A stretch of 32,000 nt of DNA from Methanosphaera sp. (GCA_045639105.1 JAZUCJ010000022.1:46032-78031); one strand, 5' to 3'. Shown: positions 10,712-30,583, counted from the stretch's first letter. Numbers and translations are program-made. The notes: a model not told the origin generated them from the letters alone.

Positions 10712-11010
10712 AGTATGCACATTATTTATTGGTAAAATTGTATTTAAACTATACATTAATATATTAGAACATCAATTAATAATTTACTGATAAAAAACAT
10801 GAAAAAAACAGATTATACTTATTAAAAAGAAAATTATTATGATTAATAGTAATCATAAAAAACTGATGTAAACGGGATTAAACTAATTTTTAAGCATAGA
10901 TTATATGAATAAAGCTTTGTAATTTCAAACTAGAAAATCATAATTAGTAAGATGCATAAAGATACAATTATTACATAAATTAATATAAAAAAATTATAAA
11001 GTGAAAAAAC

Positions 11011-11421: not shown

Positions 11422-11423
11422 AA

Positions 11424-13931: not shown

Positions 13932-13939
13932 CCTTCTTA

Positions 13940-13949
13940 TTTTTTTTTT
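13940..13949 (+). terminator. Oligo-T (T10) putative terminator after the ATPase gene
   Basis: A T10 run begins 9 nt after the TAA at 13929-13931. Confidence 0.5.
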
Positions 13950-14053
13950 GCATAATCTTATTCCTGATTTTCATTTTGTATTTCAAAAATAGTATTAATC
14001 ATTTATTATAAAATTAATGTTAGATAGAATCATAATTATTTGGAGGAAATTAA

Positions 14054-14830
14054 ATGAGATATATTGTGATGTCTGGTACATCTGATGCAACGAAGGTTAT
14101 TGAATTTTTAAGTCAGGATGAAAATAATTACATTTTAGCAACAACAGTCACCGATTATGGTGGAAAGATTGCCGAATCTGCTGGTGCAACTGAAGTAATT
14201 ACGCATGCATTGAAAGAGGAAGATTTTATTGAATTGATTAAGGAAAAAAATATTGATACATTAATTGATGCTACACATCCCTTTGCGGCAGTGGCCACTG
14301 AAACTGCTATTGAAAGTAGTGAAAAAGCCGGAATAAACTATATCAGGTATGAAAGAGCTTCAACTGTTCTTCCAGAATCAGATTTGATACATAATGTTGA
14401 ATCTTTTGAGGAAGGTGCCGTTAAATCTAAAGAATTGGTTGAAAATAGTGATGGAAAATTAATGCATCTTGCCGGAGTGTTGAATTTAAGTAAAATTACA
14501 GAAGTTGTCGGTCCAGAAAAAGTTGTTCCACGTGTTCTTCCAAATAATTTTAGCATTACAAAAACTCATGATACGGGAGTTCCTGCAGAAAATATTATTG
14601 CCATGCAAGGAACGTATTCCAAGGAATTTAATATGGCACTTATGAAAGAGTACAACATTTCTGCAATTATCACCAAAGAAAGTGGTGAAAGTGGTGGAGC
14701 CGAAAATAAGATTAATGCCGCTTTAGAGCTGGAGATTCCTGTTGTTTTAATTAGAAGACCTAAAGTTGAAAAATTAGCTAATCATGTTATGGTTAGATCT
14801 ATTGAAAATCTTAAAGAAATAATTGGATAA
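14054..14830 (+). CDS. cbiJ: Cobalt-precorrin-6A reductase
   Basis: 258 aa with the CobK/CbiJ pattern: N-terminal SGTSDA, then IDATHPFA and ITKESGESGG. GGAGG lies 8 nt upstream of the ATG. Confidence 0.85.
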   Translation: MRYIVMSGTSDATKVIEFLSQDENNYILATTVTDYGGKIAESAGATEVITHALKEEDFIELIKEKNIDTLIDATHPFAAVATETAIESSEKAGINYIRYERASTVLPESDLIHNVESFEEGAVKSKELVENSDGKLMHLAGVLNLSKITEVVGPEKVVPRVLPNNFSITKTHDTGVPAENIIAMQGTYSKEFNMALMKEYNISAIITKESGESGGAENKINAALELEIPVVLIRRPKVEKLANHVMVRSIENLKEIIG

Positions 14831-14866
14831 TATAATTATTTATAAAAAGAATTGGGGTTTATGTAA

Positions 14867-14931
<65 letters not shown>

Positions 14932-14963
14932 TTTTTTATTAAAAAAGAGGTAGGAAGGTGTAT

Positions 14964-16187
14964 CTAATTATACATTACTCCTGCTTCTTTTTCGTTTGTA
15001 TTTTTGTTTTTGTTTAGAACTTTGTCAAGTGCATCTTCAAAGTTTTGTGCTGATACGCTGTAATTATCTTCACGTATTGCAAACATACCTGCTTCGGTAC
15101 ATATTGATTTTAAATCTGCTCCTGATGCATTTTTAGCGTTTGCTGCTATGCTGGCTAAGTCCACGTCAGGGTCTAATGTCATGTTTTTGGTATGTATTTT
15201 AAGAATTTCCAGTTTACCTTCTTCATCAGGTACAGGTACTTCTATAATTCTATCAAACCTTCCAGGACGTATTAATGCTGGGTCTAATATGTCCGGCCTG
15301 TTTGTAGCTGCTATGATACCGACATTTCCTCTTGATTCAAAACCATCCATTTCTGCTAATAGTTGCATGAGTGTTCTTTGTACTTCTCTGTCACCACTAG
15401 TTGAACCTTGTAATCTTTTTGCTGCTATTGCATCTATTTCATCTATAAATATTATTGCAGGAGATTTTTCTTTTGCTAATTCAAATACTCCACGTACTAA
15501 ACGTGAACCTTCTCCAATATATTTTTTTACGAATTCTGATGCTACAATTTTTATGAAAGTTGCGTTTGTTTCATGTGCTACTGCTTTTGCAAGTAAAGTT
15601 TTACCCGTTCCTGGCGGTCCATAGAAGAGTACTCCCTTAGGTGGTGTAATTCCCACTTTTTCAAAGATTGTAGGATTTTTAAGTGGAAGTTCTACTGTTT
15701 CAATTGTTTCTCTTATTTGATCTTTAAGTCCACCTATTTTGTCATATGATATGTCGGGTGCTTCCTCTATTTCCATTCCTGATACTAATGGATCTTTTTC
15801 TGATGTTAATATGTCAACAATACTGAATGTTTGTTGGTTTAAAGCTACCCTTGAACCTATTTCAACCCTATCTGCATCCTTATCAGCATATTTTAATAAG
15901 AATGAAGGACCGGTAGTGCTTTTGACTACTACCTGGTTATCATCCAATATTTCAGATATGGTTGCTAATACTAATGGAGGTGTTCTAAATCGACTAATTT
16001 CACTTTTTAATGATTTTACTTCACGATCTAACCTTAAGTTTTCATTTTCTAGCAATACTTTGTCTTTTTCTAATTTTCTTACTTCCCAGGTTAAATTTCG
16101 TTCAATAGTCTCATGTTTATCCAATAAGTTTGATAATTCTAAATCTTTTTCATCTTGGACATTTGTTTCAAAGTCTGGTTCTTGCAT
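14964..16187 (-). CDS. pan: Proteasome-activating nucleotidase (AAA+ ATPase)
   Basis: 407 aa with an N-terminal coiled coil. It has Walker A GPPGTGKT, Walker B IIFIDEID, the second region of homology ([19 protein letters not shown]) and a C-terminal Hb-Y-X tail (MYN). Confidence 0.95.
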
Positions 16188-16407
16188 CTGTTGCCCTCCT
16201 TCAAATTTTAATTTTTAATTAGACTTATGTAATTTTTTTTCTAACTTTTTGTTTTTTTAATAAAATTTTTTCTACATCATTATCTTTAGAAATCATCATT
16301 ATTAAAGTATTTGCAAAAAATATTTTCAATCAAGACTTTATTATCAAAAAAGATATTTTATCCAAAAAACAGAACAATATATATAACAAATCTATTAAGT
16401 GAATAAA

Positions 16408-16917
16408 ATGAACTGTGAAATATGTGGAAGCGAAATAAAAGGAGAACCTTATAAAACTAAAATTGATAATTCTGTTATGGTGACTTGTAAAGAATGTTCT
16501 AGATATGGTAAAGTTCAAAGCAAACCTCAACCAGTAAATAAAAGAGCACCTAAAGGAAAAAACAGTAACAATAACAGAAACTACAACAACAAACCTAGAA
16601 ATCAAGCTTATACACGAAAAACTAAAGAAGAAGAATATGAATTAGTGGAAGACTATGCAAAAATTATCAGACAAAAACGTGAAATAAGAGGTCTTACACA
16701 AAAGCAACTTGGAGAAAAAATCTACGAAAAAGAATCAGTTTTACATAAAATCGAAAACGGTAAAATGGTTCCTGACGAAAAAATCGCTAAAAAACTAGAA
16801 AAAATCTTAAACATACAAATTATTGAAAAAGTAGAAGGCGATGAAAGAGAATTCCAAGATGCCAGACAATATAAAGAAGCAACTATCGGTGATATTGCTC
16901 GAATAAAAAGAAAATAA
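16408..16917 (+). CDS. Archaeal multiprotein-bridging-factor-1 family protein (Zn-ribbon + HTH)
   Basis: The ORF track starts at GTG 16399. The ATG at 16408 gives MNCEICG..CKECSRYG (a CxxC..CxxC ribbon) followed by a Cro/C1-type HTH (LTQKQLGEKIYEKESVLHKIENGK). Confidence 0.85.
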   Translation: MNCEICGSEIKGEPYKTKIDNSVMVTCKECSRYGKVQSKPQPVNKRAPKGKNSNNNRNYNNKPRNQAYTRKTKEEEYELVEDYAKIIRQKREIRGLTQKQLGEKIYEKESVLHKIENGKMVPDEKIAKKLEKILNIQIIEKVEGDEREFQDARQYKEATIGDIARIKRK

Positions 16918-16928
16918 AATAATATAAA

Positions 16929-17300
16929 CTATTTTTTTCTCTTTTCTTTATTCTTTTTAGATGAATAATAACCATCAAATACTCTTGCCTTATTAAATTC
17001 CCTGAGTAAACCTTCATATTCCGGATATTCTTCACTAATTACGATAACATGTGCCGGAGGATGAGTTTTTTTAATATTAATTATACTAATAGTAGTATCT
17101 TCTTTTACTTGAACTAAAACCGGAACTTTAATATCATCACGTGGTTTTTGTTTAATGACTCTTTTTGTTACATCATACACTTTATCCTGTGAGACTATTT
17201 TAGGTTTTCCCACAATATTTAATTTTGCGTGTCTTTCCAGATCAGCTAAAACATTTAAAGCCTTCTTATTATTCATTGCCCTTATTAAAATTAATGCCAT
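16929..17300 (-). CDS. Hypothetical protein with a Lys-rich C-terminal tail
   Basis: 123-aa ORF with an ATG start, 46 nt downstream of the 422-aa gene on the same strand. The tail is SSKKNKEKRKK. I recognise no family. Confidence 0.5.
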   Translation of the reverse strand: MALILIRAMNNKKALNVLADLERHAKLNIVGKPKIVSQDKVYDVTKRVIKQKPRDDIKVPVLVQVKEDTTISIINIKKTHPPAHVIVISEEYPEYEGLLREFNKARVFDGYYSSKKNKEKRKK

Positions 17301-17346
17301 AAATAAACTCCTAAAAAATAATAATTAAAAAAAAAAGAATAGAAGA

Positions 17347-18612
17347 CTATCGTCTTCTAAAGAAAGATTTGATTAATGTACTTCTAAATAATGCTAACAA
17401 TATTAACAATATTCCTATAATGGTTTGAATATTTCCCAATACATCAAATATTTGTGAATTTATAGGTAAATTCCATGTTGGTGCCGTTCTACCATTAGGT
17501 GCCGGTGAGAAATATACCCCTACAGCTTTAATGTTTTCCTTAACATTTAAATCTGATGTATCTATATGTTCAACACCAACCAAAGTACCACTATCAATTG
17601 CCCTATTAATTGATCTTGCTATTTTAACCGGATCATAACCGTTTCTAGATACTGATGCAGATACTATGTCGGCGGTTGCTTCTGACAAACCTTTTTTATC
17701 TGAACCGTATACGGAAACAGATGGATGATCACCAGAGACCGTGATAGCATTTTTAAGTGCATCATAAGCATATATTGTAGTTAATGGACTTCCATCTACC
17801 GGGGAAACTTGATAATTATTAGCTTCAGGGAAACCAATACTCCAGCCAGAACTACTTACTTTACTGTATGGCTTATCCATTTCATATCCTACATCGTTTA
17901 ATTGTTCCGGAGTAAACATATCTCCCGTAGTTACACCAGAAATTAAGTTAACTGCACCCCCACCGTGGTTTTCACCGGAATCTTTTGCAACTTCTTCAAA
18001 AGCCTTTGCCACAATGGTTGTTGCTGGATAACCATCCCTGATCATTTTACCAATATTCATAGCTGTTTGTAATCTTACTCTATCAGCCGTTCCTGCTTTA
18101 GGGTTTCCTTCAGAATTACGAAGGTGAATAATTGCACCTCTTGTTCCTGGAGGTACTGATACAACACCACCTGCTGCAGGCTGAATTCTGATTGTACTGC
18201 TGTTGTCAACTGTAATTACGTATACTTGGAAATCTCCTCCAACCGAAATTCCTTGTGTCGGATTTACGGCCATTAAACGTATACCTTCAAAGTTTTGTGC
18301 AACACCCACTATCTGTTGAAGTGAAGAATTTGCTTGAAGTTGCGTTAATGCCGTGATAATTGCGGCTATACGAACATCCGAAGTACCTTCACCCCCTGAA
18401 AGCAGGGCTGTCTTATGTTCTTGAGAAAATATAAATGTTGACTGGAACATGTTTGATGCAAAGGACTGGCTTCCTGCAGCACAACCGTTTGGATCTTTTC
18501 CAGAAGGATCGGTAATTACTGCAACGTTCATTGTTGCTGAAGCTACGGATGATAGTAATATGACAATTAAGAAGAACATTGATATTTTTGCAAATTTTGA
18601 ATGTCTATTCAT
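17347..18612 (-). CDS. Uncharacterised exported protein with a cleavable signal peptide and a C-terminal TM anchor
   Basis: The ORF track starts at TTG 18615. The ATG at 18612 is preceded by GGTGAT. It has an N-terminal signal (FFLIVILLSSVASA|T) and a large Gly/Ala/Ser/Thr/Val-rich ectodomain. The C-terminal TIIGILLILLALF helix is followed by the basic tail KSFFRRR. Confidence 0.7.
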   Translation of the reverse strand: MNRHSKFAKISMFFLIVILLSSVASATMNVAVITDPSGKDPNGCAAGSQSFASNMFQSTFIFSQEHKTALLSGGEGTSDVRIAAIITALTQLQANSSLQQIVGVAQNFEGIRLMAVNPTQGISVGGDFQVYVITVDNSSTIRIQPAAGGVVSVPPGTRGAIIHLRNSEGNPKAGTADRVRLQTAMNIGKMIRDGYPATTIVAKAFEEVAKDSGENHGGGAVNLISGVTTGDMFTPEQLNDVGYEMDKPYSKVSSSGWSIGFPEANNYQVSPVDGSPLTTIYAYDALKNAITVSGDHPSVSVYGSDKKGLSEATADIVSASVSRNGYDPVKIARSINRAIDSGTLVGVEHIDTSDLNVKENIKAVGVYFSPAPNGRTAPTWNLPINSQIFDVLGNIQTIIGILLILLALFRSTLIKSFFRRR

Positions 18613-18625
18613 CAAATCACCATCA

Positions 18626-19099
18626 TCATGTTTCTACATTTGCAGCAGCTGAATGTGTTGCTGTCGTATTATCAATAGTGTTAACTTTAATTACTGAAAA
18701 GTCTTCAACTACGTTTACTATTACGTTTCCTGTGTTTGAATCTACTTGAACATCAACAACATTTATTGGAGCAATGGATGTTCCAGGAATTGTTGATCGT
18801 TTAACTAATTGTTCCGCGTTTTTAATCGCATCTGAAAGCAACAACTGTCGTTGTGAAGTTATCAAAGTGTTTCCTTTAATATAACTGCCATCCCTAAATC
18901 CTGCTGCTTCCACGTTTGTCTTTATTGAAGAGAGAGGTACTATATCATTTCCTTTTATCATGACACCTGCAATAGGAACACCATCCTCTACATTATCAGA
19001 TGATGCAAATGCAACATAAGTCATTGCACGACCAGATAATATTAAAACAAATGCTAAAATCAAAATGATTAAAGTATCTCGTCTAACTTTTATAAACAA
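18626..19099 (-). CDS. Uncharacterised small exported or signal-anchored protein
   Basis: 157 aa. The TTG start is preceded by GGGTGA 4 nt upstream, and the first in-frame ATG would delete the hydrophobic segment. The N-terminus RRDTLIILILAFVLILSG..YVAFA|SS is signal-peptide-like. Its stop is 13 nt before the next gene's ATG. Confidence 0.6.
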   Translation of the reverse strand: MFIKVRRDTLIILILAFVLILSGRAMTYVAFASSDNVEDGVPIAGVMIKGNDIVPLSSIKTNVEAAGFRDGSYIKGNTLITSQRQLLLSDAIKNAEQLVKRSTIPGTSIAPINVVDVQVDSNTGNVIVNVVEDFSVIKVNTIDNTTATHSAAANVET

Positions 19100-19260
19100 T
19101 ATTTCACCCCTATTAAAGCATAGATAAAAAAAATAAGATATAACTACATTTTTTTTAATTTAACCACACTTTGTTTATAGTAAGATAATTTATTAAATAA
19201 TAGTTATATTTTTTATTTTATAAGTAGATAATGCAAAAATATGCAAATAATTTTACTATG

Positions 19261-19270
19261 AAAAAAAAAA
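19261..19270 (-). terminator. Oligo-T (T10 on the minus strand) putative terminator after the second Mur-ligase pair
   Basis: An A10 run on the plus strand (T10 on the coding strand) lies 21 nt downstream of the TAA at 19292-19294. Confidence 0.5.
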
Positions 19271-19291
19271 TGAAAGGATAATTAATGATAT

Positions 19292-20857
19292 TTATAAATC
19301 ATATTTTTCAAGAATAATGTCTTTGTATTTAAATGCTGCTTCACCGGTACATATTATCAAATCGGCATCTATTTCTAAAGACTTATTAAAACCTGATAAA
19401 ACTTGTTCAACGGTAGCTCCCAAAGTACCTTGCTTTTCATCCGTTGGCATAGAATCGGGTAAAACAATTTTATCAGTGTATAAACCATTTTTTAATGCTT
19501 CTTTTGCACATAAATAAGCATTATATGATGCTGGAACAATATAATCCGCATAATCTGCAGAACAATTTAATATCTCAGTATCTCCACTTAAACCGGATTC
19601 GGAAGATGTTGTTATGACATTAACGATTTTAGGATAAATGTTTTTTATCTCTTTCAATACTGTTGTTATTCCTGCAGGATTATGAGCATAATCTATCATT
19701 ATCTCTTTATCAAAAAGTGTTCCTATCTTTTGCATCCTACCATTTACGCCATCAAATTCAGAAATATACTTTCCTATGTCTTCAAAAGACATTCCCATAA
19801 CTTCTTTGGCTACAATTATTGCTCCAAGCGAATTGTAAATATTATGTAATCCGTTTATTTTAAGTTTAAAGTCGTATTTTCCTTCTTTGGTAATTAATGT
19901 GAAGTGATCATGTTTTTCATTAATATTTGTTGCCAAATAATCGGGCTGTGAATAAGAAATTCCGCATTCACAATCGTATTTACCGACACCTGCTATGAAT
20001 TCGTTGACCTCAACTTCATTTCCACAGAAACATTGTTTGTAAGATTTTCTGAATGATTGTGCATCAAGTCCAAATGTGATTAAATTACCCGTGTAATCTA
20101 CTTCCCTGAGCAATGACATGATTGTCGGATCATCATTATTAACTATTAGTGTTTTATTTTTAAGTAATTCGACCAGTTCACCTTTTACTTTAGCATAATT
20201 TAAGAAATCATGACTATTGGTTAGATGATCCTCTGTGATGTTAGTTATTAATCCTACGTCGGCCTTACATGCACTGATTAATCTTGTTAAACTGCCTTCA
20301 AAACCGAATGTTCCCGTTTCTAAAATACTTAAATCACCATTTAAACGGGATTGAAGTGGTGGTATGTCGGCAAGATTCCCCTGCATGTTTGCCAGGTTAT
20401 GTTCACACGGCTTTAATCCGCCGGATATTGCTAAATGTTTAAGTAACGTTGTGGTAGTTGTTTTTCCATTGGTCCCCGTGATACATATTACTGGATGAAC
20501 GGGTTCAAATAATTCAAAAATGTCATCCACGGTTAATATGGGTACTGATTGTTCTTGAACTTTCTTGTATAAATTGGATTTGGATTCTATTAATTGTGTT
20601 GGCATTATAATATAATCCGATGATGAAATAAAATCTTCCGGCATCTGCCCATAATAAACTACCATTTCAGGATAATCCCGTAATGAGCTGCCAAATCTAC
20701 AATTTTCCTTGTTGACTATGTCCGTTGCTTGAACTTTATATCCATGGTCCATTAAAATTCTGGCTATGAGATTACCGTTTACTCCACAAACACCAATTAC
20801 TCCAAACAATGCATCATCTTTAATATCAGTTATTTGCATATCGTTTACAACCTTCAT
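19292..20857 (-). CDS. Mur-ligase family protein with an N-terminal Rossmann-like domain and a Cys-rich insertion (pseudomurein peptide ligase candidate)
   Basis: 521 aa. The N-terminal FGVIGVCGVNGNLIARILMDHGYKVQATD is like the MurC/MurD N-domain. It has the P-loop ICITGTNGKTTTTTLL and DYAHNPAGI in the C-terminal part. An insertion CFCGNEVEVNEFIAGVGKYDCECG is present. The start could instead be the ATG at 20839. Confidence 0.85.
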   Translation of the reverse strand: MKVVNDMQITDIKDDALFGVIGVCGVNGNLIARILMDHGYKVQATDIVNKENCRFGSSLRDYPEMVVYYGQMPEDFISSSDYIIMPTQLIESKSNLYKKVQEQSVPILTVDDIFELFEPVHPVICITGTNGKTTTTTLLKHLAISGGLKPCEHNLANMQGNLADIPPLQSRLNGDLSILETGTFGFEGSLTRLISACKADVGLITNITEDHLTNSHDFLNYAKVKGELVELLKNKTLIVNNDDPTIMSLLREVDYTGNLITFGLDAQSFRKSYKQCFCGNEVEVNEFIAGVGKYDCECGISYSQPDYLATNINEKHDHFTLITKEGKYDFKLKINGLHNIYNSLGAIIVAKEVMGMSFEDIGKYISEFDGVNGRMQKIGTLFDKEIMIDYAHNPAGITTVLKEIKNIYPKIVNVITTSSESGLSGDTEILNCSADYADYIVPASYNAYLCAKEALKNGLYTDKIVLPDSMPTDEKQGTLGATVEQVLSGFNKSLEIDADLIICTGEAAFKYKDIILEKYDL

Positions 20858-22289
20858 TTAATCCATTAATCAGTTTTTCTTTTACTTGGTTATAAGAAGT
20901 AGTTCCTCCTATACCTAAATGAACTATGTAATCGCCCGGTTTAGCATATTTCATAGCTAATTCTGCTGCTTCATCTACGCTGCATAGTGCTAATTTTATT
21001 ACTTCATCGTTTTCTATCGCATTTAATAAGCCTAACGCAGAGTCCATGTGCAATTCCCCTGTTATTTCAACATATCCCGTTGCAATAACCATGTTTGCAT
21101 ATTCTCCAACGGTTCTACCACTTTCTTCATTGTCACGTATAGTTGTTGAGTCCACACAACCAAAGACTACTATGATATTTTCATCTTTAATAAAATCCAG
21201 AGCTTGTCTTATTGACAATTCGGAACATGATGAATCAAAGTATGCTTCAACACCATTAAATGTTCCCAAATGTTCCATTCTTCCACTTACTCCAGTGAAT
21301 AATGCCAAACCTTCTTTAATCGTGTCCCAGGAAATACCATATTCAAGACATACTGATATTGCTGCTGTTAAGTTAGCGTAATTGTATGATGCCACAGTAT
21401 CTATGTTTATATCTGTTTTTTCTATTGGATTATCTCCACATATTTTGAAAACATAATTTCCATCATCATATGAGGCCACGTATTTAGGAGAGTATTTGTT
21501 TTTATCAGCATCTAAATTATTATTTTCAAAATCGAAGTAAATTGTATCTTCCCGTTTATATGTTAATAAATCAGCACATTGGATATTTGCCACTAATTTG
21601 TCACACATGTCCAAAATCAAGGATTTTCTGTCAATATATTTTTGCATTGACCCGTTGAATTCACTTAGGTGTTCCTGATGTAAGTTGGTGATGACTCCCA
21701 GTTTTAGTTCCACATCACCCAGCAAGCCTAAAGTACCATGTGGCAATTCCAGAATAGCCAAATCTGCTCCCTTGTATTCTCCCCTAACTATGTCGTCCAC
21801 GATTGCTTCACTTACCAAGTTCCATTTCATGGATGAACATTGATATACGTTATATCCTGCTTTCTTGAATATGTGTGTTATCATGGTTGTTGTTGTGGTT
21901 TTACCGTATGAGCCAGTAATACCTATTTTATCCATGTCAATAATTGTGTTTATTAAGTCACTGATTGTTTTTCTAGTAACTATTGTTATATCATTTTCTT
22001 TAATTTGCTGGTATATCGGTGCAGATTCCGGTATTGTCGGAGCAAGATATATTGCTTCATAACCTGAAATATCCGGATTATCAACACCCAATTCTAATGT
22101 TACACCTTCACTTTTGAGTACGTCGAGCATATCCTTCCTTATTTCAGTGAATTCTCCATATTTTTTTGAATCTACAATCGTTACATTTACGCCCTGATGG
22201 TTCAATAATCTGGCAACCGGTCTTCCAGCATTTCCGGCACCAATTACTACACAATTTTTAAAGTTCAACAAAAAAAACAACTCCTTCAT
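20826..22289 (-). CDS. Mur-ligase family protein, MurD-like (pseudomurein peptide ligase candidate)
   Basis: 487 aa with the Rossmann N-domain VVIGAGNAGRPVARLLNHQGVNVTIVD and the P-loop IGITGSYGKTTTTTMI. FDSSCSE sits where MurD has DSKATN. The start is uncertain: AAGGAG directly after the ATG at 22289 could serve TTG codons 7 or 8 instead. Confidence 0.85.
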   Translation of the reverse strand: MKELFFLLNFKNCVVIGAGNAGRPVARLLNHQGVNVTIVDSKKYGEFTEIRKDMLDVLKSEGVTLELGVDNPDISGYEAIYLAPTIPESAPIYQQIKENDITIVTRKTISDLINTIIDMDKIGITGSYGKTTTTTMITHIFKKAGYNVYQCSSMKWNLVSEAIVDDIVRGEYKGADLAILELPHGTLGLLGDVELKLGVITNLHQEHLSEFNGSMQKYIDRKSLILDMCDKLVANIQCADLLTYKREDTIYFDFENNNLDADKNKYSPKYVASYDDGNYVFKICGDNPIEKTDINIDTVASYNYANLTAAISVCLEYGISWDTIKEGLALFTGVSGRMEHLGTFNGVEAYFDSSCSELSIRQALDFIKDENIIVVFGCVDSTTIRDNEESGRTVGEYANMVIATGYVEITGELHMDSALGLLNAIENDEVIKLALCSVDEAAELAMKYAKPGDYIVHLGIGGTTSYNQVKEKLINGLNEGCKRYANN

Positions 22290-22461
22290 TAATTAAAAAT
22301 AATTTATTAAAAAACATTACGATAATATCTTAGTTTAATATCTTTTTTTTATAATAAATAATATTTTCCTAAAAATTAATAATACTTAAAAAATCTTTGT
22401 TTAAAGAATTATAAGAAAGCAGATTAATTTTTTAATTATTATGAGTTAATAAAAATAAATT

Positions 22462-22474
22462 AAAAATAGAAAAA
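22462..22474 (-). terminator. T5-C-TA-T5 tract immediately after the stop of the MurE/F-like ligase gene
   Basis: The minus strand reads TAA-CCCCC-TTTTT-C-TA-TTTTT. This is weaker than the other oligo-T tracts. It is followed by a 190-bp AT-rich gap before the next gene. Confidence 0.35.
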
Positions 22475-22479
22475 GGGGG

Positions 22480-23943
22480 TTAGATTATATCTTTTTCTTC
22501 CAATATCTTTCTTGCAGGATCCATACCCTGTGCACCCAGCAATAAGATTACATCGGATTTGTTTGCCTTGCCAAATGTTGAAATTAAGGATTCTTCCAAA
22601 GTATCATATAACTTGTAGATTATTGAATTATCATCCAATACTCCGGTAAATATTTCCAACTCGGAATCTGTGACCGTATTCAAGTTATTTACCACATCAG
22701 TACTTGTAGTTAATATTAAAGAATAATTGTCCTGTTGTGCCAATACTTCAACTAACGCTTCGGCTATTTCTTTATTAATATCTTCTCCACGACTTCCCCT
22801 GATTGCATTTATGACAAAGAGATGTTCACCTAATTTAGCGCCGTTTTCGATTGTTAAATGAATTCCTGAAGGATTATGAGCAAAGTCGTCGATGATTACT
22901 GGATTTTCCCGGAGCTTGATAAAGCGTCTTGCCAATGGTTTATAGTTTTTTAGTGAAGAGATTACATCCGCCCTATCCAACGATTTGTATTCACAAACTG
23001 CTATGGCCGCCATGATATCCTGAATAAAATGGTTTGAAGTAAAAGGCAAATCCTCGTATCTTATGTATAATTCATCCCTAGAAAATATTCCCACATTTTC
23101 TTTATAGGATATGTCTAAAATGTTAGAAGAATCATAGTCACCAAAATACATCACCTTTACATTAGAATTATCCTCTACTACTTCTGCCATTTTTCTAATA
23201 TTTTTGTCTTCATAGTTAAGAACCAATAATGTTTGTTTGTTCTGTTTTGTCAATGCCCTTGCTGCACCGGCTATTTCATATAATAGTTCATCAAAGGATT
23301 CTACCAGATTCATATGATCAAATGAGGCGTTGGTTATAACGGCAACATCTGAGCCCAAGGCGTTAATCATTTGACAGGAATGGTCATTCATTAATTTATC
23401 ATCCCACCCCTGTACTTCAGATACTTCCAATGCTATTACATCAATATTTCCGTTTTTATTATAATATTCTGCAAGTTCATCAGAAACGCGTGGATCTATT
23501 AATGTATTTCCTTCGGATTCTGCGTCGGTGTTTGTATAAGTGTTAAAACCCATATCGGAAAAAATAGTAAAAAGAAGGTGTGTGGTTGTGGATTTACCAT
23601 TAGTTCCTGTTACTGACATTTTAAATGCATTGCCCGCATATTTTTGAACGGAAGAATGTAATGCATATGCTGTTGCATACTCAATATGTTCTGTAACAAT
23701 CAATGGTAAATTTAAATTTTTTGCAACCTCTATGGCATTATCTTGAGGATTTTGTGTTATTAAACAAGATACTTCCCTTTCATGAGCTATTTGAATACCT
23801 TTTTCATTAATCCAATGCCTTATTACAATATCGTCCTTGGATGCTTTATTAAGAAAAGTAAAATTTCCATCTAATTCAATATTTGGACCATATAATGTTC
23901 CTTTTATTTTTTTAGACAAATCTAATGTGTTCATCATACTCAT
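22480..23943 (-). CDS. Mur-ligase family protein, MurE/MurF-like (pseudomurein peptide ligase candidate)
   Basis: 487 aa with no Rossmann N-domain. It has the P-loop MSVTGTNGKSTTTHLL, ITNASFDHMN (the central-domain DH motif) and DDFAHNPSGI. It lies 22 nt downstream of the MraY-like gene. Confidence 0.85.
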   Translation of the reverse strand: MSMMNTLDLSKKIKGTLYGPNIELDGNFTFLNKASKDDIVIRHWINEKGIQIAHEREVSCLITQNPQDNAIEVAKNLNLPLIVTEHIEYATAYALHSSVQKYAGNAFKMSVTGTNGKSTTTHLLFTIFSDMGFNTYTNTDAESEGNTLIDPRVSDELAEYYNKNGNIDVIALEVSEVQGWDDKLMNDHSCQMINALGSDVAVITNASFDHMNLVESFDELLYEIAGAARALTKQNKQTLLVLNYEDKNIRKMAEVVEDNSNVKVMYFGDYDSSNILDISYKENVGIFSRDELYIRYEDLPFTSNHFIQDIMAAIAVCEYKSLDRADVISSLKNYKPLARRFIKLRENPVIIDDFAHNPSGIHLTIENGAKLGEHLFVINAIRGSRGEDINKEIAEALVEVLAQQDNYSLILTTSTDVVNNLNTVTDSELEIFTGVLDDNSIIYKLYDTLEESLISTFGKANKSDVILLLGAQGMDPARKILEEKDII

Positions 23944-23965
23944 TTTTTTTCCTCAATTAATGAAA

Positions 23966-25048
23966 TCATATTATTCCAAACAGGAATAATGCAATTACGG
24001 ATACTATTAATGTTACTCCCCAGTATAACAATATAATCTTTTGTTCTGACATACCATGATAATTCAAGGTATGATGTAATGGTTCTACAGGTAATGTTAT
24101 CACATGTGCCCTATGTAATAAACTGATTATTACGGATATGATTGGAACTGCTAATGCGATGATGGAAAATATTAAAGAATTTCCCAATAATGCGGCCACC
24201 ATATAACCAGTACCTAATGCATAAGATCCCGTATCTCCCATGAATATCTTTGCAGGATAATGGTTTAAGACCAGGAATCCCACACATGCTCCTGCAAGCA
24301 CTACAAATGGCAATGATGCTACTGTGCCTGTTACTACACCAGAATAAAGTGCTGATGCTATGGATGCTATTGCAATTATTCCTGCTGCCAAACCATCCAT
24401 TCCATCAATCAGGTTAACTGCATTAATAGAACCGATGATTGCCAGTATTGCTAAAGGAATCATTAATAAACCAATTTCGATTCCGCTAACATTAGTTGAT
24501 AAAACTCCCGGGACTATTAAGAAACATGCCAATATAAATTGAGTTAAGAGTTTATATGTTTCGGAAGTTTCTGTTTTAATAGGGATTTCATCAATTAATT
24601 CTAATTTATGATCCTTTTCAACAATTTCTGCATAATCTTTTTTAGCTTGAGGTGAAGCTACTCTTGCTTCTTCTCCAGGTTGTAATGATAATAATCCAAT
24701 TTTAACCGGTTCATCACCATTATTTCTTACTACTTTTTGATATTCTTTTACTTTAAATCCAAGTAAATCATCAAACATACCAAAAATACCTGCAACAAAC
24801 ATCATGAAAACCATTATGTGTAAATAACTAACGGCATCCCATGTAAATGTAAACAAGGCCATTAATGCAACACCAATCAATATTCCAAAACCACCCATGG
24901 TTGGTGTTCCACTTTTTTGCCTATGTTCAGAAACTATAGGATTATCACGAATATCCGCTAATAACAATTCACGTCTAACAGCTGCAGTAAATAATGCTGT
25001 TACTACTATTGTTAATATAAAGATTAGTACGTCCACTTGACTAATCAT
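23966..25048 (-). CDS. MraY-like polyprenyl-phosphate phospho-sugar/peptide transferase (glycosyltransferase family 4)
   Basis: 360 aa and polytopic. Motifs are FDDLLGF, NLIDGMDGLA, GDTGSYALG and PVEPLHHTLNYHG, in the order of MraY/WecA-family motifs. A hydrophilic loop of about 70 aa (KVKEYQK..TSETYK) lies between TM blocks. Confidence 0.88.
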   Translation of the reverse strand: MISQVDVLIFILTIVVTALFTAAVRRELLLADIRDNPIVSEHRQKSGTPTMGGFGILIGVALMALFTFTWDAVSYLHIMVFMMFVAGIFGMFDDLLGFKVKEYQKVVRNNGDEPVKIGLLSLQPGEEARVASPQAKKDYAEIVEKDHKLELIDEIPIKTETSETYKLLTQFILACFLIVPGVLSTNVSGIEIGLLMIPLAILAIIGSINAVNLIDGMDGLAAGIIAIASIASALYSGVVTGTVASLPFVVLAGACVGFLVLNHYPAKIFMGDTGSYALGTGYMVAALLGNSLIFSIIALAVPIISVIISLLHRAHVITLPVEPLHHTLNYHGMSEQKIILLYWGVTLIVSVIALFLFGII

Positions 25049-25155
25049 ATTTTTAACCCCCTGAAGTTAAAAAAACTATAAATTTATATTATTTAATTAT
25101 CTATCTCAAGATTAAAATAAGTAACTGTAAAGAATAAAAAATGTAGACGGTTAAT

Positions 25156-25163
25156 AAAAAAAA
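25156..25163 (-). terminator. Oligo-T (T8 on the minus strand) putative terminator after the ATP-grasp gene
   Basis: An A8 run on the plus strand lies 14 nt downstream of the TAA at 25178-25180. A 129-bp gap follows before the MraY-like start. Confidence 0.45.
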
Positions 25164-25177
25164 GTGGTTTGTGGAGT

Positions 25178-26332
25178 TTAAGAAAAATTAATATTGTTTT
25201 TACATGCATAATCATTTACCAAATCATGGGTTAATTTGTTAAGATTTTCCCTGGAATCTGCCCTAATGGTTAGTCTCTGATAATGTGTTGGACCGTGAAC
25301 AACATATGAATTGTCACCGTCAAACACCTTTTCTTCAGGTATTACTTTGTCGGCAGGAAAATCGCCTATAGGTAATTCTGTTGCATAATAGTTTTTTATG
25401 GATGATTCAACCCCTTTGGCAGACCAGTTTCCGCAAGCCATGTCGATTAATTGGCATATAGGGTATACGTCTGTGGAAGCTGCAGTCATATAACGTGTTC
25501 CGCTAGGTCTGGTATTTAGTTCTATGACAAAATCTTCCCCGTTTTTTGAATCGTGCAAAATGTCTATGTCCATTGTACCTTCCACATCAACAAGATTTGC
25601 TAATTTTACGGCAAGATTTTTAATGTATTGGTTGTGCTTGGTGTTGTCTATTCCATCAATATTTAATGGGGCCTGTTTAATTTTTGATAATGGATGAGTT
25701 CCCTCGAGAGTGGTTTCACCCTTATATACCGGAACCAATGGAACTGCCTGATTATTCCATCGTAAAACCTCAATAGAAGCTTCCATTCCCTCGACAAATT
25801 CTTCACTGAAAATATTGTTTTTTTCGGAGACGAAGTCCAGGATATCCTCCTTTGTTAAAGCTATCTTTACCCCGGTACCTCCCTGACCTTCAGGGGTTTT
25901 CAATACTAATGGCAATTGACTTTCCAAATCGTCTATGTCATAAGGTTCATCCAGCTTATTAAATATTGGAGTTTTAATATTGTTTTTGGTTAACAGTTCC
26001 TTGGTTTCATACTTATTTGCTGCCAGTGCTGCCGTACTATATTGTGCTGCTATTACTGGAATACCGTTTTCTTTTTCAAGGGTGTCCTTCATTTTTCCAA
26101 CATCAACCAATGGTGGATCTATACCTATTAATGGTATTACTGCATCAACTTCTTCTTTAATGGCTATTTCCATAGGTTCATCCATTCCTCTTGAAACAAT
26201 ATATTGTTTATCGGCCAAATCCAAGTTTTCCGCGTTTTTGTTTGATTCCGTGATTATTGTTTCTATACCTAACTTTTTTGCATACCATGCAGCATCATCA
26301 AATAATCGTGAGCCTATAAATAATATTTTCAT
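25178..26332 (-). CDS. ATP-grasp enzyme, carbamoyl-phosphate-synthase-large-subunit-like (pseudomurein peptide-bond-forming candidate)
   Basis: 384 aa with a pre-ATP-grasp Rossmann N-terminus (MKILFIGS). It has a glycine-rich loop KTPEGQGGTGVKI and ELNTRPSGT, equivalent to CarB EVNPRVSRS. GGTGG lies 3 nt upstream of the ATG and overlaps the upstream stop. Confidence 0.8.
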   Translation of the reverse strand: MKILFIGSRLFDDAAWYAKKLGIETIITESNKNAENLDLADKQYIVSRGMDEPMEIAIKEEVDAVIPLIGIDPPLVDVGKMKDTLEKENGIPVIAAQYSTAALAANKYETKELLTKNNIKTPIFNKLDEPYDIDDLESQLPLVLKTPEGQGGTGVKIALTKEDILDFVSEKNNIFSEEFVEGMEASIEVLRWNNQAVPLVPVYKGETTLEGTHPLSKIKQAPLNIDGIDNTKHNQYIKNLAVKLANLVDVEGTMDIDILHDSKNGEDFVIELNTRPSGTRYMTAASTDVYPICQLIDMACGNWSAKGVESSIKNYYATELPIGDFPADKVIPEEKVFDGDNSYVVHGPTHYQRLTIRADSRENLNKLTHDLVNDYACKNNINFS

Positions 26333-26340
26333 TATACCAC

Positions 26341-26787
26341 CTATACCAATTCTACTAATATGTCTGTTAATTCTTCTACACTATCCTTTACTTCATCCGA
26401 TACCTTATTTACCAATTTCATTTCCTTTGGTTGTATTCCGATGGTTATGATCTTACTTCCAATTGTTTCTTCAATATAATTTATTATGAATGATATCGGC
26501 ATGGAATGGGTGGAAACGTTAAATGTATCAATTTGTTCCTTTTGAATGATTAACATCTCACCGGGACTTGCTTCAAATTCAACAGCATCAATAATAATTA
26601 TATGTGATGGACTTAATGTTCTGATTTCATGAGTGTGATTTTCAGGAGTGGATTCCGTATTTAATAAAAATACGTTGTCCGTATCCTTAGTAGTTAAACT
26701 ACTTAATTTTTCATATAACTTTTCAGATAATAATGGTCCTAAACCATCATCTCCCCTAAGAGAATTGCCTATTGTAAAAATTAACAA
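26341..26787 (-). CDS. [NiFe]-hydrogenase maturation endopeptidase (HycI/HybD/FrhD family)
   Basis: 148 aa with a TTG start. GNSLRGDDGLGPLL, IIIIDAVEF and STHSMP supply the three metal-ligand positions typical of this family. No hydrogenase structural gene is in the window. Confidence 0.8.
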   Translation of the reverse strand: MLIFTIGNSLRGDDGLGPLLSEKLYEKLSSLTTKDTDNVFLLNTESTPENHTHEIRTLSPSHIIIIDAVEFEASPGEMLIIQKEQIDTFNVSTHSMPISFIINYIEETIGSKIITIGIQPKEMKLVNKVSDEVKDSVEELTDILVELV

Positions 26788-26809
26788 TTTATCATAATCT
26801 TTTAAAAAA

Positions 26810-27574
26810 TCAGATAACTTTTCGGATATTTGCTTTGATTGTATTTAAACCACCACCCATAGTATATTTTATATTTATTATGATTGTATCAGATTCTTTT
26901 ACCTCAAGAGTATTTACCGGAATTAATAAAGGAGGATTTAACATTGGGGTAGGTCCCGTTATTAAGTCTTCTGTTACACTGGTATATGTAGTTATTAACA
27001 AGGAATTTAATTGTCCTGACTTGTTAACCGTCATTTTAATATCTTTTTCAAATTCGGGATTTGTTTGCTTAGAAAAATCAACGGTATTGTATTTGATTTC
27101 TTCAGAAAATGATTTGAATATGGTGTTTTCATCTTCCTTATATGTTATGTGTGATCTATTTGAAAAACCTACTTGTATTGTATCACATGTTGATTTTGGT
27201 ATAATAATCGTGTCTTTTTTTGTATAATGTAGTGCATTATTAATTGCCGGAACTTGTTGTTCGTCTATTAATGCCGTATCCAACATTTCACATATTATTA
27301 CATCCGGTTTTTCAACAAAAGCATAATCTGTTGTGTCAGCTTCTATAATTGTTATGTTTTCATGAGCTTTTAATAGTTCTTCAGAATATTTTTTAATTAC
27401 TAAGGGATTTATTTCAAATGCGTAAACTTTTTCTGCGTATGGTGCTGCAAATGAAGCTAATATTCCAGAACCGGTACCTAAATCATATGTGATGCCATGG
27501 GCTTTTTGTGTTATTGCCTCTTTAAAAATAGATACTCTTTTTTCATCTTTTGTTAAATCATCATAATATGTCAT
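26810..27574 (-). CDS. Class I SAM-dependent methyltransferase, PRMT-like
   Basis: 254 aa with motif I YDLGTGSGILASFAA and post-I VYAFEINP. It has an E-x8-E loop (ICEMLDTALIDEQ) and an N-terminal DLTKDEKRVSIFKEAI that resembles the PRMT ML.D..R...Y..AI helix. Confidence 0.7.
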   Translation of the reverse strand: MTYYDDLTKDEKRVSIFKEAITQKAHGITYDLGTGSGILASFAAPYAEKVYAFEINPLVIKKYSEELLKAHENITIIEADTTDYAFVEKPDVIICEMLDTALIDEQQVPAINNALHYTKKDTIIIPKSTCDTIQVGFSNRSHITYKEDENTIFKSFSEEIKYNTVDFSKQTNPEFEKDIKMTVNKSGQLNSLLITTYTSVTEDLITGPTPMLNPPLLIPVNTLEVKESDTIIINIKYTMGGGLNTIKANIRKVI

Positions 27575-27693: not shown

Positions 27694-28116
27694 TTATTCA
27701 TCTCTTACTTTGTCTAATTCTCCAGTTCCTGCACTGGTTAGTTTCACATGTTCAACCCCTTTTAGTCTCATGATTTTTTCTGTTAAATCTCTTATGTGAA
27801 TAATGTCTCCTTTGACGATAATCACTTCAAGACAGTATTGATCGTTCATGTGAATGTGTAAACTAGCATTAATTTGTTCTCGATAGTCATGTTGTATGTC
27901 TGTCATTGATTCCATGACGCCAACATAATGATGATCATAAATTACGGCTAAAACACCAACACGTTCTCCTTCCATTTCGTTCATCCATTGATATCTTAAA
28001 ATATAATCTTTCAATGCGTCACGAATACCTTTTGAACGAGATTGATATCCTCTATCACGTAATACATCGTCGAACTCATTAAGCAGTTTATTTGGTAAGG
28101 ACATGCTTATACGCAT
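27694..28116 (-). CDS. nikR: Nickel-responsive transcriptional regulator NikR
   Basis: 140 aa with an N-terminal ribbon-helix-helix (RISMSLPNKLLNEFDDVL). The C-terminal domain has H-x11-H-x-H-x5-C (QHDYREQINASLHIHMNDQYC). This is the spacing of the high-affinity Ni site of E. coli NikR. Confidence 0.92.
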   Translation of the reverse strand: MRISMSLPNKLLNEFDDVLRDRGYQSRSKGIRDALKDYILRYQWMNEMEGERVGVLAVIYDHHYVGVMESMTDIQHDYREQINASLHIHMNDQYCLEVIIVKGDIIHIRDLTEKIMRLKGVEHVKLTSAGTGELDKVRDE

Positions 28117-28165: not shown

Positions 28166-28345
28166 ATATTATTAATATAAACTATATTTTTAATAATATA
28201 TAAGTTTATTAATTATGGGGTTGTTAAATAACAATATCCATAAAATATAGTTTAAAATTTTTAAAATAAATTTAAATTTTTATGATGCAAAAAGTATATA
28301 TATAACTTAAAATAGAAGTTATAAATAGTGTTACATCACTTAAAT

Positions 28346-28419
28346 GCAGCGATAGTCCAGTCTGGCTAAGACCCTACCCTGCCACGGTAGAGACCCGGGT
28401 TCGAATCCCGGTCGTTGCA
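28346..28419 (+). tRNA. tRNA-Gly (anticodon GCC)
   Basis: Hand-folded cloverleaf. The acceptor GCAGCGA/TCGTTGC is 7 bp with one G-U, the anticodon stem is CTACC/GGTAG, the loop is CT-GCC-AC and the T-arm is CCGGG-TTCGAAT-CCCGG. The discriminator is A and no CCA is encoded. Confidence 0.92.
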
Positions 28420-28439
28420 TCAATCATAATTTTACACAT

Positions 28440-28513
<74 letters not shown>

Positions 28514-28804
28514 CTAATTTTTACTTAAATTTTAACAATATTAACCAAATATAAGCTAATTTGCTATTTACTTTATAAATTATAACTCATTTTAATCAGA
28601 AACAATAAAAGCAGCAAAGAATTATCTATTTTTAAAACATTAAATTATACTTTTTAATCATTTATTAACAGCCAATAAAATAATATGATACTAAACATGT
28701 TAACCTAAACAACCTAAAAAAAATAAACAAATAATTAAATAAATACTATATAATAATACTATTAAAGAAAGAACATGATGTTACTTTTACTAGAAGGTTA
28801 AAAA

Positions 28805-29458
28805 ATGATAGGTATAATAGTAGGTGCAGGACGTATAGGTTATAACTTAGCAAAATCCATGGCCGAAGACCATGATATAACAATTATAGAAAAAGATAAA
28901 GAACTCTGTGACAAAGTCAGTGACACACTTGATTGCTATGTTATTCAGGGAAGCGGAACAAACACCCATATTCTTAAGGAAGCCGACGTGAAAAAATCCG
29001 ACTTTTTTGTCGCCGCAACGGGTAATGATGAAGTAAACTTATTATCCTCAGTATACGCCAAGGATCATGGCGTGAAAAAAATTATTTCCAGATTAAACAA
29101 TACCCAACACAAAGACATATTTGAAAGACTGAACATTAAAACCGTAAACCCTGAAGAAAGTGCAACAAGACTGATTGCCCGGACAATAATCAGGCCAACA
29201 GTACAGAAACTTGCAATCTTTGACAAGGGGGATGGAGAAATAATTGAAATACTGGTAAAAAATTCCAATTTATTGTATACGCCTATCTCCGAAATAGAAA
29301 ACAATACATCAAAATTTAAAATACTGACCATTTATAGCAAAGATGATGTTATTATACCTACAAATGACACAGAAATAGGCTTTGAAGACAGTGTGGTTGT
29401 TCTAGTAAAAAGTGAATATGTTGATGAAATTAGGGATTATTTCAGATTAGAAAATTAG
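28805..29458 (+). CDS. trkA: TrkA-type K+ transport NAD-binding protein (TrkA-N + TrkA-C)
   Basis: 217 aa with MIGIIVGAGRIGYNLA (GxGxxG Rossmann), DFFVAATGNDEVNL, and a C-terminal RCK_C-like segment (GEIIEILVKNSNLLYTPISEI). Confidence 0.85.
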   Translation: MIGIIVGAGRIGYNLAKSMAEDHDITIIEKDKELCDKVSDTLDCYVIQGSGTNTHILKEADVKKSDFFVAATGNDEVNLLSSVYAKDHGVKKIISRLNNTQHKDIFERLNIKTVNPEESATRLIARTIIRPTVQKLAIFDKGDGEIIEILVKNSNLLYTPISEIENNTSKFKILTIYSKDDVIIPTNDTEIGFEDSVVVLVKSEYVDEIRDYFRLEN

Positions 29459-29470
29459 TAACTTGATACA

Positions 29471-30583
29471 ATGACTTATGAAAAAATTTTAACATTATCT
29501 TATCATTTACGTTTTCAGGGAGTAAATGTAAGTATTCGCAGCACAATAATGGCTTCCACCATATGGGATAATTATAAGGAAAAATTCAATTTAAAAGAAT
29601 TAAGGGAAGCGTTGAAATGTGTTTATGTTAAAAATAAGGAAGATATCATAAAATATGAAAGATCATTTGACTACGTGTTTATCTATAATAGAAATACGAA
29701 AAATAATCCTGCAGACCAGGAACACATTGAAGTCAAAGAACAGATTACCCGAGGCCATTTCACCCAGGACAAACCTCTGGAAGACAGTACTCGAGAAACC
29801 ATGATTAGACGTCGGCTAGACAAGAAAGAAGTTGTTGATAAAAGTATTCTTGATGATGACCTTTCTAAATTAAACAGTATTGATTCCAGATATTTTGACA
29901 TATGTAACGAATTCAGTAAAAAAATAGCGAATCAACGTTCAATTAGAAAAAAGAAGAATAAGTCCCGTAGTGTAGATATACCAAAAACCATCAGAAAAAA
30001 TCTTAAAGTGGGCGGACATTTGATTGACTTGGTTACAAAGAAGCCACCCGTTCATAAATCCAGGCACATATTCCTGTGCGATATAAGTGGTTCTTGCGAA
30101 TGGGCTACCACATGGTTTTTCTCATTACTGACCGGTTGTCATGAATCCTTTGATAAAATTACAGTGGACGCTTTTGACCATAGACTGGTTGATGTTACAC
30201 ATGCATTAGACATAGAATACAGAAATTCATTTCAAGTAAATGTCGGTCTTCAATCATTAGGTCTTAGACCAAGAGGCCATTCCGATATGACCAAGGCATT
30301 TAGTGAATTTTTAAAAAAATCGGATTTGAATCATCATACGGATGTTATCCTGCTTACTGATTGTCGTGACTGGACTGGCAGAAGAATAGAGGGTATCCTG
30401 GAAAGTGCTACGATTTTACATCAAATTGTTGTAAAATCCAGGCAAGTTATAATATTAAATCCTGAAAATAAAATAAGGTGGAACACACCAACCAGTTGTG
30501 TAAAGGATTACCAAGAAGCTGGTGCTAAAGTATATCAAACAAGTAGTTTGAAAGAATTTGAAAAAATTATAAAGGATATTTAA
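29471..30583 (+). CDS. VWA-domain protein, CoxE-like
   Basis: 370 aa. The N-terminal LRFQGVNVSIRSTIMAS and basic linker are followed by a MIDAS-like FLCDISGSCEW. The later VILLTDCRDW and LNPENKIRWNTPTSCVKDY match the architecture of the CoxE-type VWA family. Confidence 0.72.
   Translation: MTYEKILTLSYHLRFQGVNVSIRSTIMASTIWDNYKEKFNLKELREALKCVYVKNKEDIIKYERSFDYVFIYNRNTKNNPADQEHIEVKEQITRGHFTQDKPLEDSTRETMIRRRLDKKEVVDKSILDDDLSKLNSIDSRYFDICNEFSKKIANQRSIRKKKNKSRSVDIPKTIRKNLKVGGHLIDLVTKKPPVHKSRHIFLCDISGSCEWATTWFFSLLTGCHESFDKITVDAFDHRLVDVTHALDIEYRNSFQVNVGLQSLGLRPRGHSDMTKAFSEFLKKSDLNHHTDVILLTDCRDWTGRRIEGILESATILHQIVVKSRQVIILNPENKIRWNTPTSCVKDYQEAGAKVYQTSSLKEFEKIIKDI

Follow-up and report, generated by a model that had tools for sequence, protein, structure and literature searches.

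A pseudomurein stem-peptide and export gene cluster in Methanosphaera, its conserved neighbours, and an exported protein with a predicted N-terminal nucleophile fold

This work concerns a stretch of 32,000 nucleotides from Methanosphaera sp. (GCA_045639105.1 JAZUCJ010000022.1:46032-78031), which we call the window, and in particular the block of genes at 16929-27574, described in an initial annotation as a 10.6-kb single-strand island for the synthesis of the pseudomurein stem peptide, with unassigned genes at its edges. Pseudomurein is present in the genus Methanosphaera. The G+C content of the window is ~33%, the best protein matches are 91% identical, and the nearest species-representative genomes are those of Methanosphaera sp. 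UBA11921 (88%) and M. stadtmanae (85%). Open reading frame (ORF) calling in the window places ten intact consecutive ORFs in the block, all on the minus strand, and an ORF scan of the gaps between them found no additional substantial ORF. The initial annotation had counted eleven genes, while its own list names ten, and ten is the number in the range; the eleventh is NikR, which lies outside it. Its gene labels were checked one by one, and all of them were confirmed by domain and family scans and by PDB matches. The genes are listed below from the upstream end, with the score and cut-off of the corresponding family model where one applies.

27694-28116, minus strand: NikR nickel-responsive regulator, beyond the upstream limit of the block (NF002169, 229 bits, cut-off 111)
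26810-27574, minus strand: PRMT-like class I S-adenosylmethionine methyltransferase, 254 amino acids (aa)
26341-26787, minus strand: HycI-type [NiFe]-hydrogenase maturation endopeptidase, 148 aa (TIGR00142)
25178-26332, minus strand: ATP-grasp protein (Mfer760 / Ddl_archaea / OG0001014), 384 aa (NF053643, 545 bits, cut-off 500)
23966-25048, minus strand: MraY-like GT4 transferase (Mfer761), 360 aa (NF053644, 501 bits, cut-off 450)
22480-23943, minus strand: pMurE ligase (Mfer762 orthologue), 487 aa (NF053648, 647 bits, cut-off 600)
20826-22289, minus strand: pMurD1 ligase, 487 aa (NF053646, 614.1 bits, cut-off 610)
19292-20857, minus strand: pMurC ligase, 521 aa (NF053645, 724 bits, cut-off 560)
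18626-19099, minus strand: Mfer763-family small exported or membrane-inserted protein, 157 aa (NF053641, 220 bits, cut-off 170)
17347-18615, minus strand: Mfer764-family exported anchored protein, 422 aa (NF053642, 634 bits, cut-off 560)
16929-17300, minus strand: basic DUF356 protein, 123 aa (PF04009, 119 bits)

Seven consecutive genes, from 17347 to 26332 (~9 kb), each score above the curated cut-off of an NCBIfam equivalog model for pseudomurein biosynthesis. Within this group the pMurD1 and pMurC genes overlap by 32 bp.

The cluster and its published counterpart

A set of genes named Gene Cluster 2 has been described with Methanothermus fervidus as reference; it consists of Mfer760 (Ddl/CarB-like), Mfer761 (MraY), Mfer762 (pMurE), Mfer763 and Mfer764, and sometimes takes in pMurC and/or pMurD1 (Subedi et al. 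2021, PMC10117817). The same cluster was recovered independently as "cluster A" (Lupo et al. 2025, PMC11915815). In the window, the genes of the ATP-grasp protein, the MraY-like GT4 transferase and pMurE are adjacent and all on the minus strand, and the Mfer763 and Mfer764 genes lie downstream of pMurE, after an inserted pMurD1-pMurC pair, so that the five core genes share both order and strand with the reference. Because seven NCBIfam models were passed and the published arrangement was matched gene for gene, we identify 17347-26332, with a probability of about 0.93, as the pseudomurein stem-peptide and export cluster, that is Gene Cluster 2 / cluster A, in the variant carrying pMurD1 and pMurC. 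The pseudomurein reading of the initial annotation is thus borne out by the same two lines of evidence. The cluster has already been published and is curated in databases, with NCBIfam models and PDB structures, and as a cluster it is ordinary and holds nothing new.

Relatives of pMurE are encoded at 260 genome loci, of which 80 were retained and compared. All 80 retained loci, and all named protein matches, belong to Methanobacteriales; the published analyses restrict the cluster to the pseudomurein-bearing orders Methanobacteriales and Methanopyrales (Subedi 2021, PMC10117817; Lupo 2025, PMC11915815).

Ligases, ATP-grasp protein and transferase

The pMurE protein of the window matches the M. 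fervidus pMurE structures PDB 6VR8/7UFP with an E-value of 1.6e-120 and carries the P-loop GTNGKST. The pMurC protein matches M. fervidus pMurC (PDB 6VR7) with an E-value of 8.2e-69; it has the three-domain Mur ligase fold, with the P-loop GTNGKTT at residue 128, and its cysteine insert consists of Cys276-x-Cys278...Cys296-x-Cys298 (Cys4). For pMurD1, the Pfam matches are MurD-like_N (PF21799) and Mur_ligase_M/C. The motifs by which the ligases had been distinguished are real and lie at residue 389 of pMurC (DYAHNP), residue 353 of pMurE (DFAHNP) and residue 352 of pMurD1 (DSSCSE). We take DSSCSE to occupy the position of the D-x-x-H-N-P motif, as DSKATN does in E. coli MurD, which would fit the MurD-like N-domain of pMurD1. 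The three proteins are, as had been stated, highly diverged from one another, with pairwise identities of 23-29% over partial alignments.

With bacterial MurC, MurD and MurE these ligases share the three-domain Mur architecture, the P-loop and the Mur_ligase_M/C domains, and the transferase shares with bacterial MraY the GT4 domain (Pfam Glycos_transf_4, 4.9e-29). However, the bacterial equivalog cut-offs are missed throughout (murC 127 against 335, murD 124 against 212, murE 49-107 against 257 and mraY 112 against 192 bits), and for this reason we place the ligases and the transferase in the same superfamilies as the bacterial enzymes and not among the members of the bacterial families. Further differences from the bacterial enzymes are the substrate, which in pseudomurein synthesis is an L-amino-acid peptide linked to uridine diphosphate (UDP) without a sugar, and the additional Cys4 zinc site of pMurC, which is conserved (Cha et al. 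2026, PMC12996149). The cluster also differs from the bacterial dcw cluster in having no FtsW, MurG or penicillin-binding protein.

In assays of the M. ruminantium and M. fervidus enzymes, Ala or Thr was joined to a UDP-Glu analogue by PMurC, and Lys was attached next by PMurE (Cha et al. 2026, PMC12996149). These published assays agree with the expectation, drawn earlier from the divergence of the ligases, that their substrates are distinct. The initial annotation had also left the order of the biochemical steps open, which is now partly out of date: PMurC and PMurE were assayed in 2026, and both are represented by crystal structures, with the Cys4 zinc site among the features resolved.

The ATP-grasp protein, with matches to Pfam ATP-grasp_3 and CPSase_L_D2, was earlier held to be a paralogue of carB and not the carbamoyl-phosphate synthase itself, and this stands. 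On the CarB model, where 599 bits are required, it reaches 43, and it is 25% identical over 281 aa to the carB product of the window; CarB has a duplicated ATP-grasp domain and ~1060 aa, while this protein has 384 aa. The true carB, at 5608-8790 on the minus strand, scores 1587 bits. It lies beside carA (8816-9913, minus strand), and glmS is at 1763-3535 on the plus strand; all three had been correctly located in the window. The ATP-grasp protein has been proposed to activate Glu (Subedi 2021, PMC10117817; Lupo 2025, PMC11915815).

From the orthologue activities, the following route may be outlined. In the cytoplasm, ATP-dependent Mur-type ligases would extend a UDP-linked glutamate, with pMurC adding Ala or Thr in second place and pMurE adding Lys, and pMurD1, together with a pMurD2 encoded elsewhere, presumably adding the remaining Ala and Glu. 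The ATP-grasp protein, following the literature, would supply the phosphoryl-transfer step that activates Glu, and the MraY-like GT4 transferase, going by its homology, would shift the finished precursor to a polyprenyl-phosphate carrier.

Several points weigh against the identification of the cluster or against parts of this route. In this organism the cluster is known from genes alone, and activities have been measured only for orthologues. The published assays used uridine monophosphate (UMP) analogues and not UDP substrates, and they failed for PMurD, which showed ATPase activity only, and for the first activation step (PMC12996149). The M. smithii orthologue of the ATP-grasp protein was once reported as a small carbamoyl-phosphate synthase (Lupo 2025, PMC11915815), a report that both groups doubt (PMC10117817, PMC11915815).

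The ligases and the ATP-grasp protein could also be thought to serve another pathway, namely the glutamylation of F420 or methanopterin or the synthesis of F430, since such pathways do employ the Mur-ligase and ATP-grasp folds and weak matches to the CfbE, CofF and MptN models were indeed obtained. These matches fall far under the respective cut-offs (CfbE 44-66 against 250, CofF 29 against 300 and MptN 30 against 350 bits), while the pseudomurein models are passed; according to the literature the genes are limited to the pseudomurein-bearing orders, and the substrates of PMurC and PMurE are Glu peptides linked to uridine (PMC12996149). We consider a cofactor pathway close to refuted.

The ligase genes vary among the loci compared. 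The inserted pMurC-pMurD1 pair is inverted in one M. stadtmanae metagenome-assembled genome (locus L007, 13246-16184), two loci (L016 and L064) have pMurC and lack pMurD1, and the Methanobrevibacter and Methanothermobacter loci have neither gene at this place. Among the pMurE homologues at 42-48% identity, the majority, including several assigned to Methanobrevibacter, have 579-652 aa and exceed the 487-aa Methanosphaera and 476-aa M. fervidus proteins by ~100-165 aa; mis-called starts are possible.

Where the cluster ends

The proteins of the window were mapped onto the 80 loci, which come from Methanosphaera, Methanobacterium, Methanobrevibacter and other Methanobacteriaceae. Wherever a locus extends far enough, the order is, with hardly an exception, NikR, PRMT-like methyltransferase, HycI, ATP-grasp, MraY, pMurE, the pMurD1-pMurC pair where present, Mfer763, Mfer764 and DUF356; beyond DUF356 lie a convergent aMBF1 gene and then PAN. 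Among the full-length loci, 26 have the pMurD1-pMurC pair and 21 lack it, and NikR is upstream of the methyltransferase in most. In a comparison of synteny, of the kind that the initial annotation had proposed, Methanosphaera, Methanobacterium, Methanobrevibacter and Methanothermobacter agree in this order, and M. fervidus has a bare core. The Methanothermobacter version has nine genes, with different outer upstream neighbours, and it looks like an operon because the genes overlap or are only 2-31 bp apart; NikR and the methyltransferase overlap there as well (L081, 6141-6563 and 6553-7344). In Methanothermus fervidus only the five core genes are found, with a ThiI-like gene upstream and SufBD downstream, and none of NikR, the methyltransferase, HycI and DUF356 is present at the cluster.

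This conservation could mean that everything from NikR to DUF356 forms a single functional operon whose flanking genes take part in pseudomurein synthesis or regulate it, for example by processing or modifying the exported proteins or the stem peptide. The order is found in nearly all of the 80 loci and in three genera, it is kept in Methanothermobacter with close spacing despite the different outer neighbours, and in the window the HycI gene ends 8 bp ahead of the ATP-grasp start. The overlap of the flanks with the core in Methanothermobacter counts against a strict separation of the two, since it makes co-transcription and some functional tie possible. However, the farther genes CobQ, TrkA, PAN, CbiJ and aMBF1 are equally syntenic across Methanobacteriaceae, so that gene order in this family is conserved regardless of function, and the M. 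fervidus cluster does without all four flanking genes. The distribution of DUF356, a small family of 53 representative clusters, points the same way: members are also found in Methanofastidiosum, Theionarchaea and Methanohalarchaeum, outside both pseudomurein orders, and in the pseudomurein-bearing Methanopyrus the DUF356 gene is separate from the cluster, among unrelated genes and ~3 kb from an aMBF1-like gene (L085, 10001-13913). Two of the flanking proteins have recognisable functions of their own, since HycI passes the hydrogenase-protease equivalog model TIGR00142 (145 bits, cut-off 119.1, residues 2-147; Pfam HycI 6.8e-19) and NikR passes the nickel-regulator model. Neither published screen for pseudomurein-specific genes lists the flanking genes, and DUF356 and HycI are not mentioned in the supplements of Lupo 2025 (PMC11915815).

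Signals between the genes bear on the same question. The ATP-grasp, pMurE and pMurC genes each have a run of T5-T10 behind the stop codon (gaps 25049-25177, 22290-22479 and 19100-19291), and at the Mfer764 stop a stem-loop with a T-run (17340-17359, minus strand) separates this gene from DUF356. This pattern suggests possible archaeal terminators and several transcription units, which speaks against a single operon, although such a signal is weak in DNA this AT-rich; inspection of the gaps for TATA-like and oligo-T elements is likewise only suggestive in DNA of 13-22% G+C. A bacterial promoter scan did no better than shuffled sequence (65 found against 65.2 expected), the model being bacterial and not applicable to archaea. 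Inside the block, scans for repeats, Rfam families and tRNAs brought up neither an RNA element nor a repeat of any meaning. A 26-nt "repeat" was rejected, as it is the shared stretch of pMurC and pMurE that codes for the D(Y/F)AHNP motif.

A single functional operon is, in our judgement, quite improbable. Given the distant synteny, the bare core of M. fervidus and the distribution of DUF356, we do not count the flanks among the core pathway genes, and the methyltransferase, HycI, DUF356 and NikR are probably family-level neighbours. The island reading of the 10.6-kb block therefore holds for the ~9 kb at 17347-26332 and fails for the methyltransferase, HycI and DUF356, which are lineage-specific neighbours; the earlier treatment of these flanks as unassigned was right. 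On the simplest reading, the upstream set is a nickel and hydrogenase-maturation module with a PRMT-like partner, a DUF356-aMBF1 pair lies downstream, and the wall cluster is lodged between them. In Methanofastidiosum, DUF356 is ~1 kb from a NikR gene (L084, 6001-7924), and this position, together with the one in Methanopyrus, hints at a possibly older NikR...DUF356-aMBF1 neighbourhood that took up the wall cluster in Methanobacteriaceae. The position between NikR/PRMT-like/HycI and DUF356, seen here and in other Methanobacteriaceae, is where this cluster differs from Gene Cluster 2 / cluster A as published; it is not described in the text of Subedi 2021 or Lupo 2025, and we regard it as a minor, apparently undescribed detail of synteny that probably lacks meaning for the pathway.

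As to the flanking proteins themselves, the best PDB matches of the methyltransferase are eukaryotic PRMTs (3r0q, E 1.9e-9), among them plant PRMT4.2, CARM1, PRMT8 and PRMT1, in alignments covering residues 4-185. Motif I of the class I fold is present as GTGSG, and CEMLDTALIDE, the stretch of the double-E loop, hardly varies among 66 orthologues. We assume that E96 and E105, with eight residues between them, correspond to the double-E loop of PRMTs, whose spacing they match. NikR contains LHIHMNDQYC, in which we presume the His-x-His-x5-Cys spacing of the nickel site as in E. coli NikR. Literature searches on archaeal PRMTs and on DUF356/PF04009 returned nothing relevant.

Farther out, two tRNA-Gly genes (GCC and UCC anticodons) occupy 28345-28514 on the plus strand, opposite to NikR, in the AT-rich spacer upstream of it. 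The regions 566-16917 and 28805-31977 hold housekeeping genes: purS, purC, glmS, a thioesterase-like gene, a chlorohydrolase-family amidohydrolase, carB, carA and rimI, as well as a P-type Ca/cation ATPase, cbiJ, PAN, aMBF1, TrkA, a VWA-domain protein and cobQ.

The exported proteins of the Mfer763 and Mfer764 families

The last two genes of the cluster encode proteins with an N-terminal hydrophobic leader, described in the literature as lacking recognisable domains (Subedi 2021, PMC10117817; Lupo 2025, PMC11915815). The Mfer763-family protein has no Pfam match, and its gene always lies between the ligases and Mfer764 in the loci compared. The Mfer764-family protein has a predicted signal peptide at residues 1-27, followed by an ectodomain that starts at Thr28 and by a middle region; at the C-terminus a transmembrane helix and a basic tail complete the protein. 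In alignments an invariant A27-T28-x-N30 directly follows the leader: Ala at -1, Thr at +1 and Asn at +3 are each present in 191/191 sequences covering the site. Positions -3 and -2 are A/V/S and S/A, as in a classic signal-peptidase site, so that cleavage before Thr28 is predicted from the sequence.

At residues ~252-287 the family carries a CxxCGW...CPxC knuckle, which we followed in loci L001-L083. Methanobrevibacter and M. fervidus have four Cys, Methanothermobacter and Methanobacterium three or two, and Methanosphaera, including the protein of this window, none (Ser/Val/Asp in their place). It seems that this extracellular protein has been losing a zinc-ribbon-like or disulfide element step by step.

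The full-length AlphaFold2 model of the Mfer764-family protein has a mean predicted confidence (pLDDT) of 76. For residues 28-232 the model reaches pLDDT 89.3 and pTM 0.89; in it, Thr28 opens the first strand of a four-layer alpha-beta-beta-alpha sandwich. When this domain was compared with the PDB by Foldseek, the top match was circularly permuted human taspase-1 (E 3.3e-5, probability 1.0, TMq 0.59). The three best matches are all taspase-1 chains starting at the catalytic Thr, and no other match has E < 1e-3. They are followed by HslV, Anbu and proteasome subunits, with PP2C phosphatases interleaved. The domain thus resembles the Thr-type N-terminal nucleophile (Ntn) hydrolases (taspase-1/type-2 asparaginases, HslV, proteasome beta subunits and Anbu) in its predicted sandwich and in having strand 1 at an invariant Thr. 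It differs from them in having no detectable sequence similarity, in a Thr that would be exposed by signal peptidase and not by autoproteolysis, and in belonging to an extracellular, membrane-anchored protein with ~190 further residues, whose catalysis is a prediction.

Some observations count against an Ntn fold. The assignment comes from a predicted structure, and the TM-scores are moderate, from 0.37 to 0.59. PP2C phosphatases, which have the same alpha-beta-beta-alpha architecture, appear among the Foldseek matches. Pfam and NCBIfam scans gave no sequence-level Ntn match, a 13-sequence profile searched against all PDB sequences returned noise, and Pfam scans of 40 family members at E-values up to 10 also gave noise only, so that the fold is assigned by structure prediction.

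These same observations feed a different explanation, by which the protein is no Ntn hydrolase and would be either an extracellular PP2C-like metal phosphatase, with the lipid-pyrophosphate carrier as one conceivable substrate, or a scaffold without catalytic function, the Thr being part of the signal-peptidase site and nothing else. The PP2C structures 3w40, 3pu9 and 2xzv are in the top dozen matches with similar TM-scores, the root-mean-square deviations are 6-9 A, and similarity to any Ntn family is absent at the sequence level. Against this, the leading matches with the best E-values are all taspase-1 permuted to start at its catalytic Thr, and HslV, Anbu and the proteasome make up most of the remaining high-probability matches, even with PP2C among them. 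The Thr at +1 and the Asn at +3 are invariant while the body of the signal peptide and positions -2 and -3 vary, which is more than a cleavage site needs, and the first strand of the model starts at Thr28. A phosphatase or a scaffold is less likely than not, though by no means remote, and we lean, by a small degree, towards an Ntn fold with an N-terminal Thr nucleophile as predicted by the model.

If the protein has this fold, a role in cross-linking the stem peptides or, alternatively, in trimming them is plausible, because the cross-linking enzymes of pseudomurein have only been postulated and methanogens already have a transpeptidase built on a proteasome-like fold. The cross-linkers postulated in the literature are transglutaminases; the precedent is the archaeal Connectase, reported to be a transpeptidase with a proteasome-like fold (PMC7980362). 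Our literature search found no paper linking pseudomurein with Ntn hydrolases. In the mechanism that we propose, both exported proteins would act outside the membrane. Signal peptidase would expose the catalytic Thr of Mfer764, and the C-terminal helix would anchor the protein; the Thr might then form an acyl-enzyme with the stem peptide, which would be handed on to a Lys or Glu residue in an adjacent strand. A role of Mfer764 as an extracellular pseudomurein transpeptidase in this specific sense is, as a model-based proposal, unlikely, though not remote.

The predicted Ntn fold of Mfer764 is the only new lead of specialist interest to come out of this analysis, and it appears to be new in the literature searched. 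It makes Mfer764 a candidate for the missing pseudomurein cross-linking enzyme; if this is true, the protein would be a functional analogue of the penicillin-binding proteins, built on a proteasome- or taspase-like fold. The presence of Thr28, a single defined residue that can be mutated, in a pseudomurein-specific exported protein makes the question of extracellular cross-linking directly testable. The boundaries of the functional cluster are now set off from its conserved neighbours, which is useful for the design of knock-outs and inhibitors against the methanogens of the gut and the rumen.

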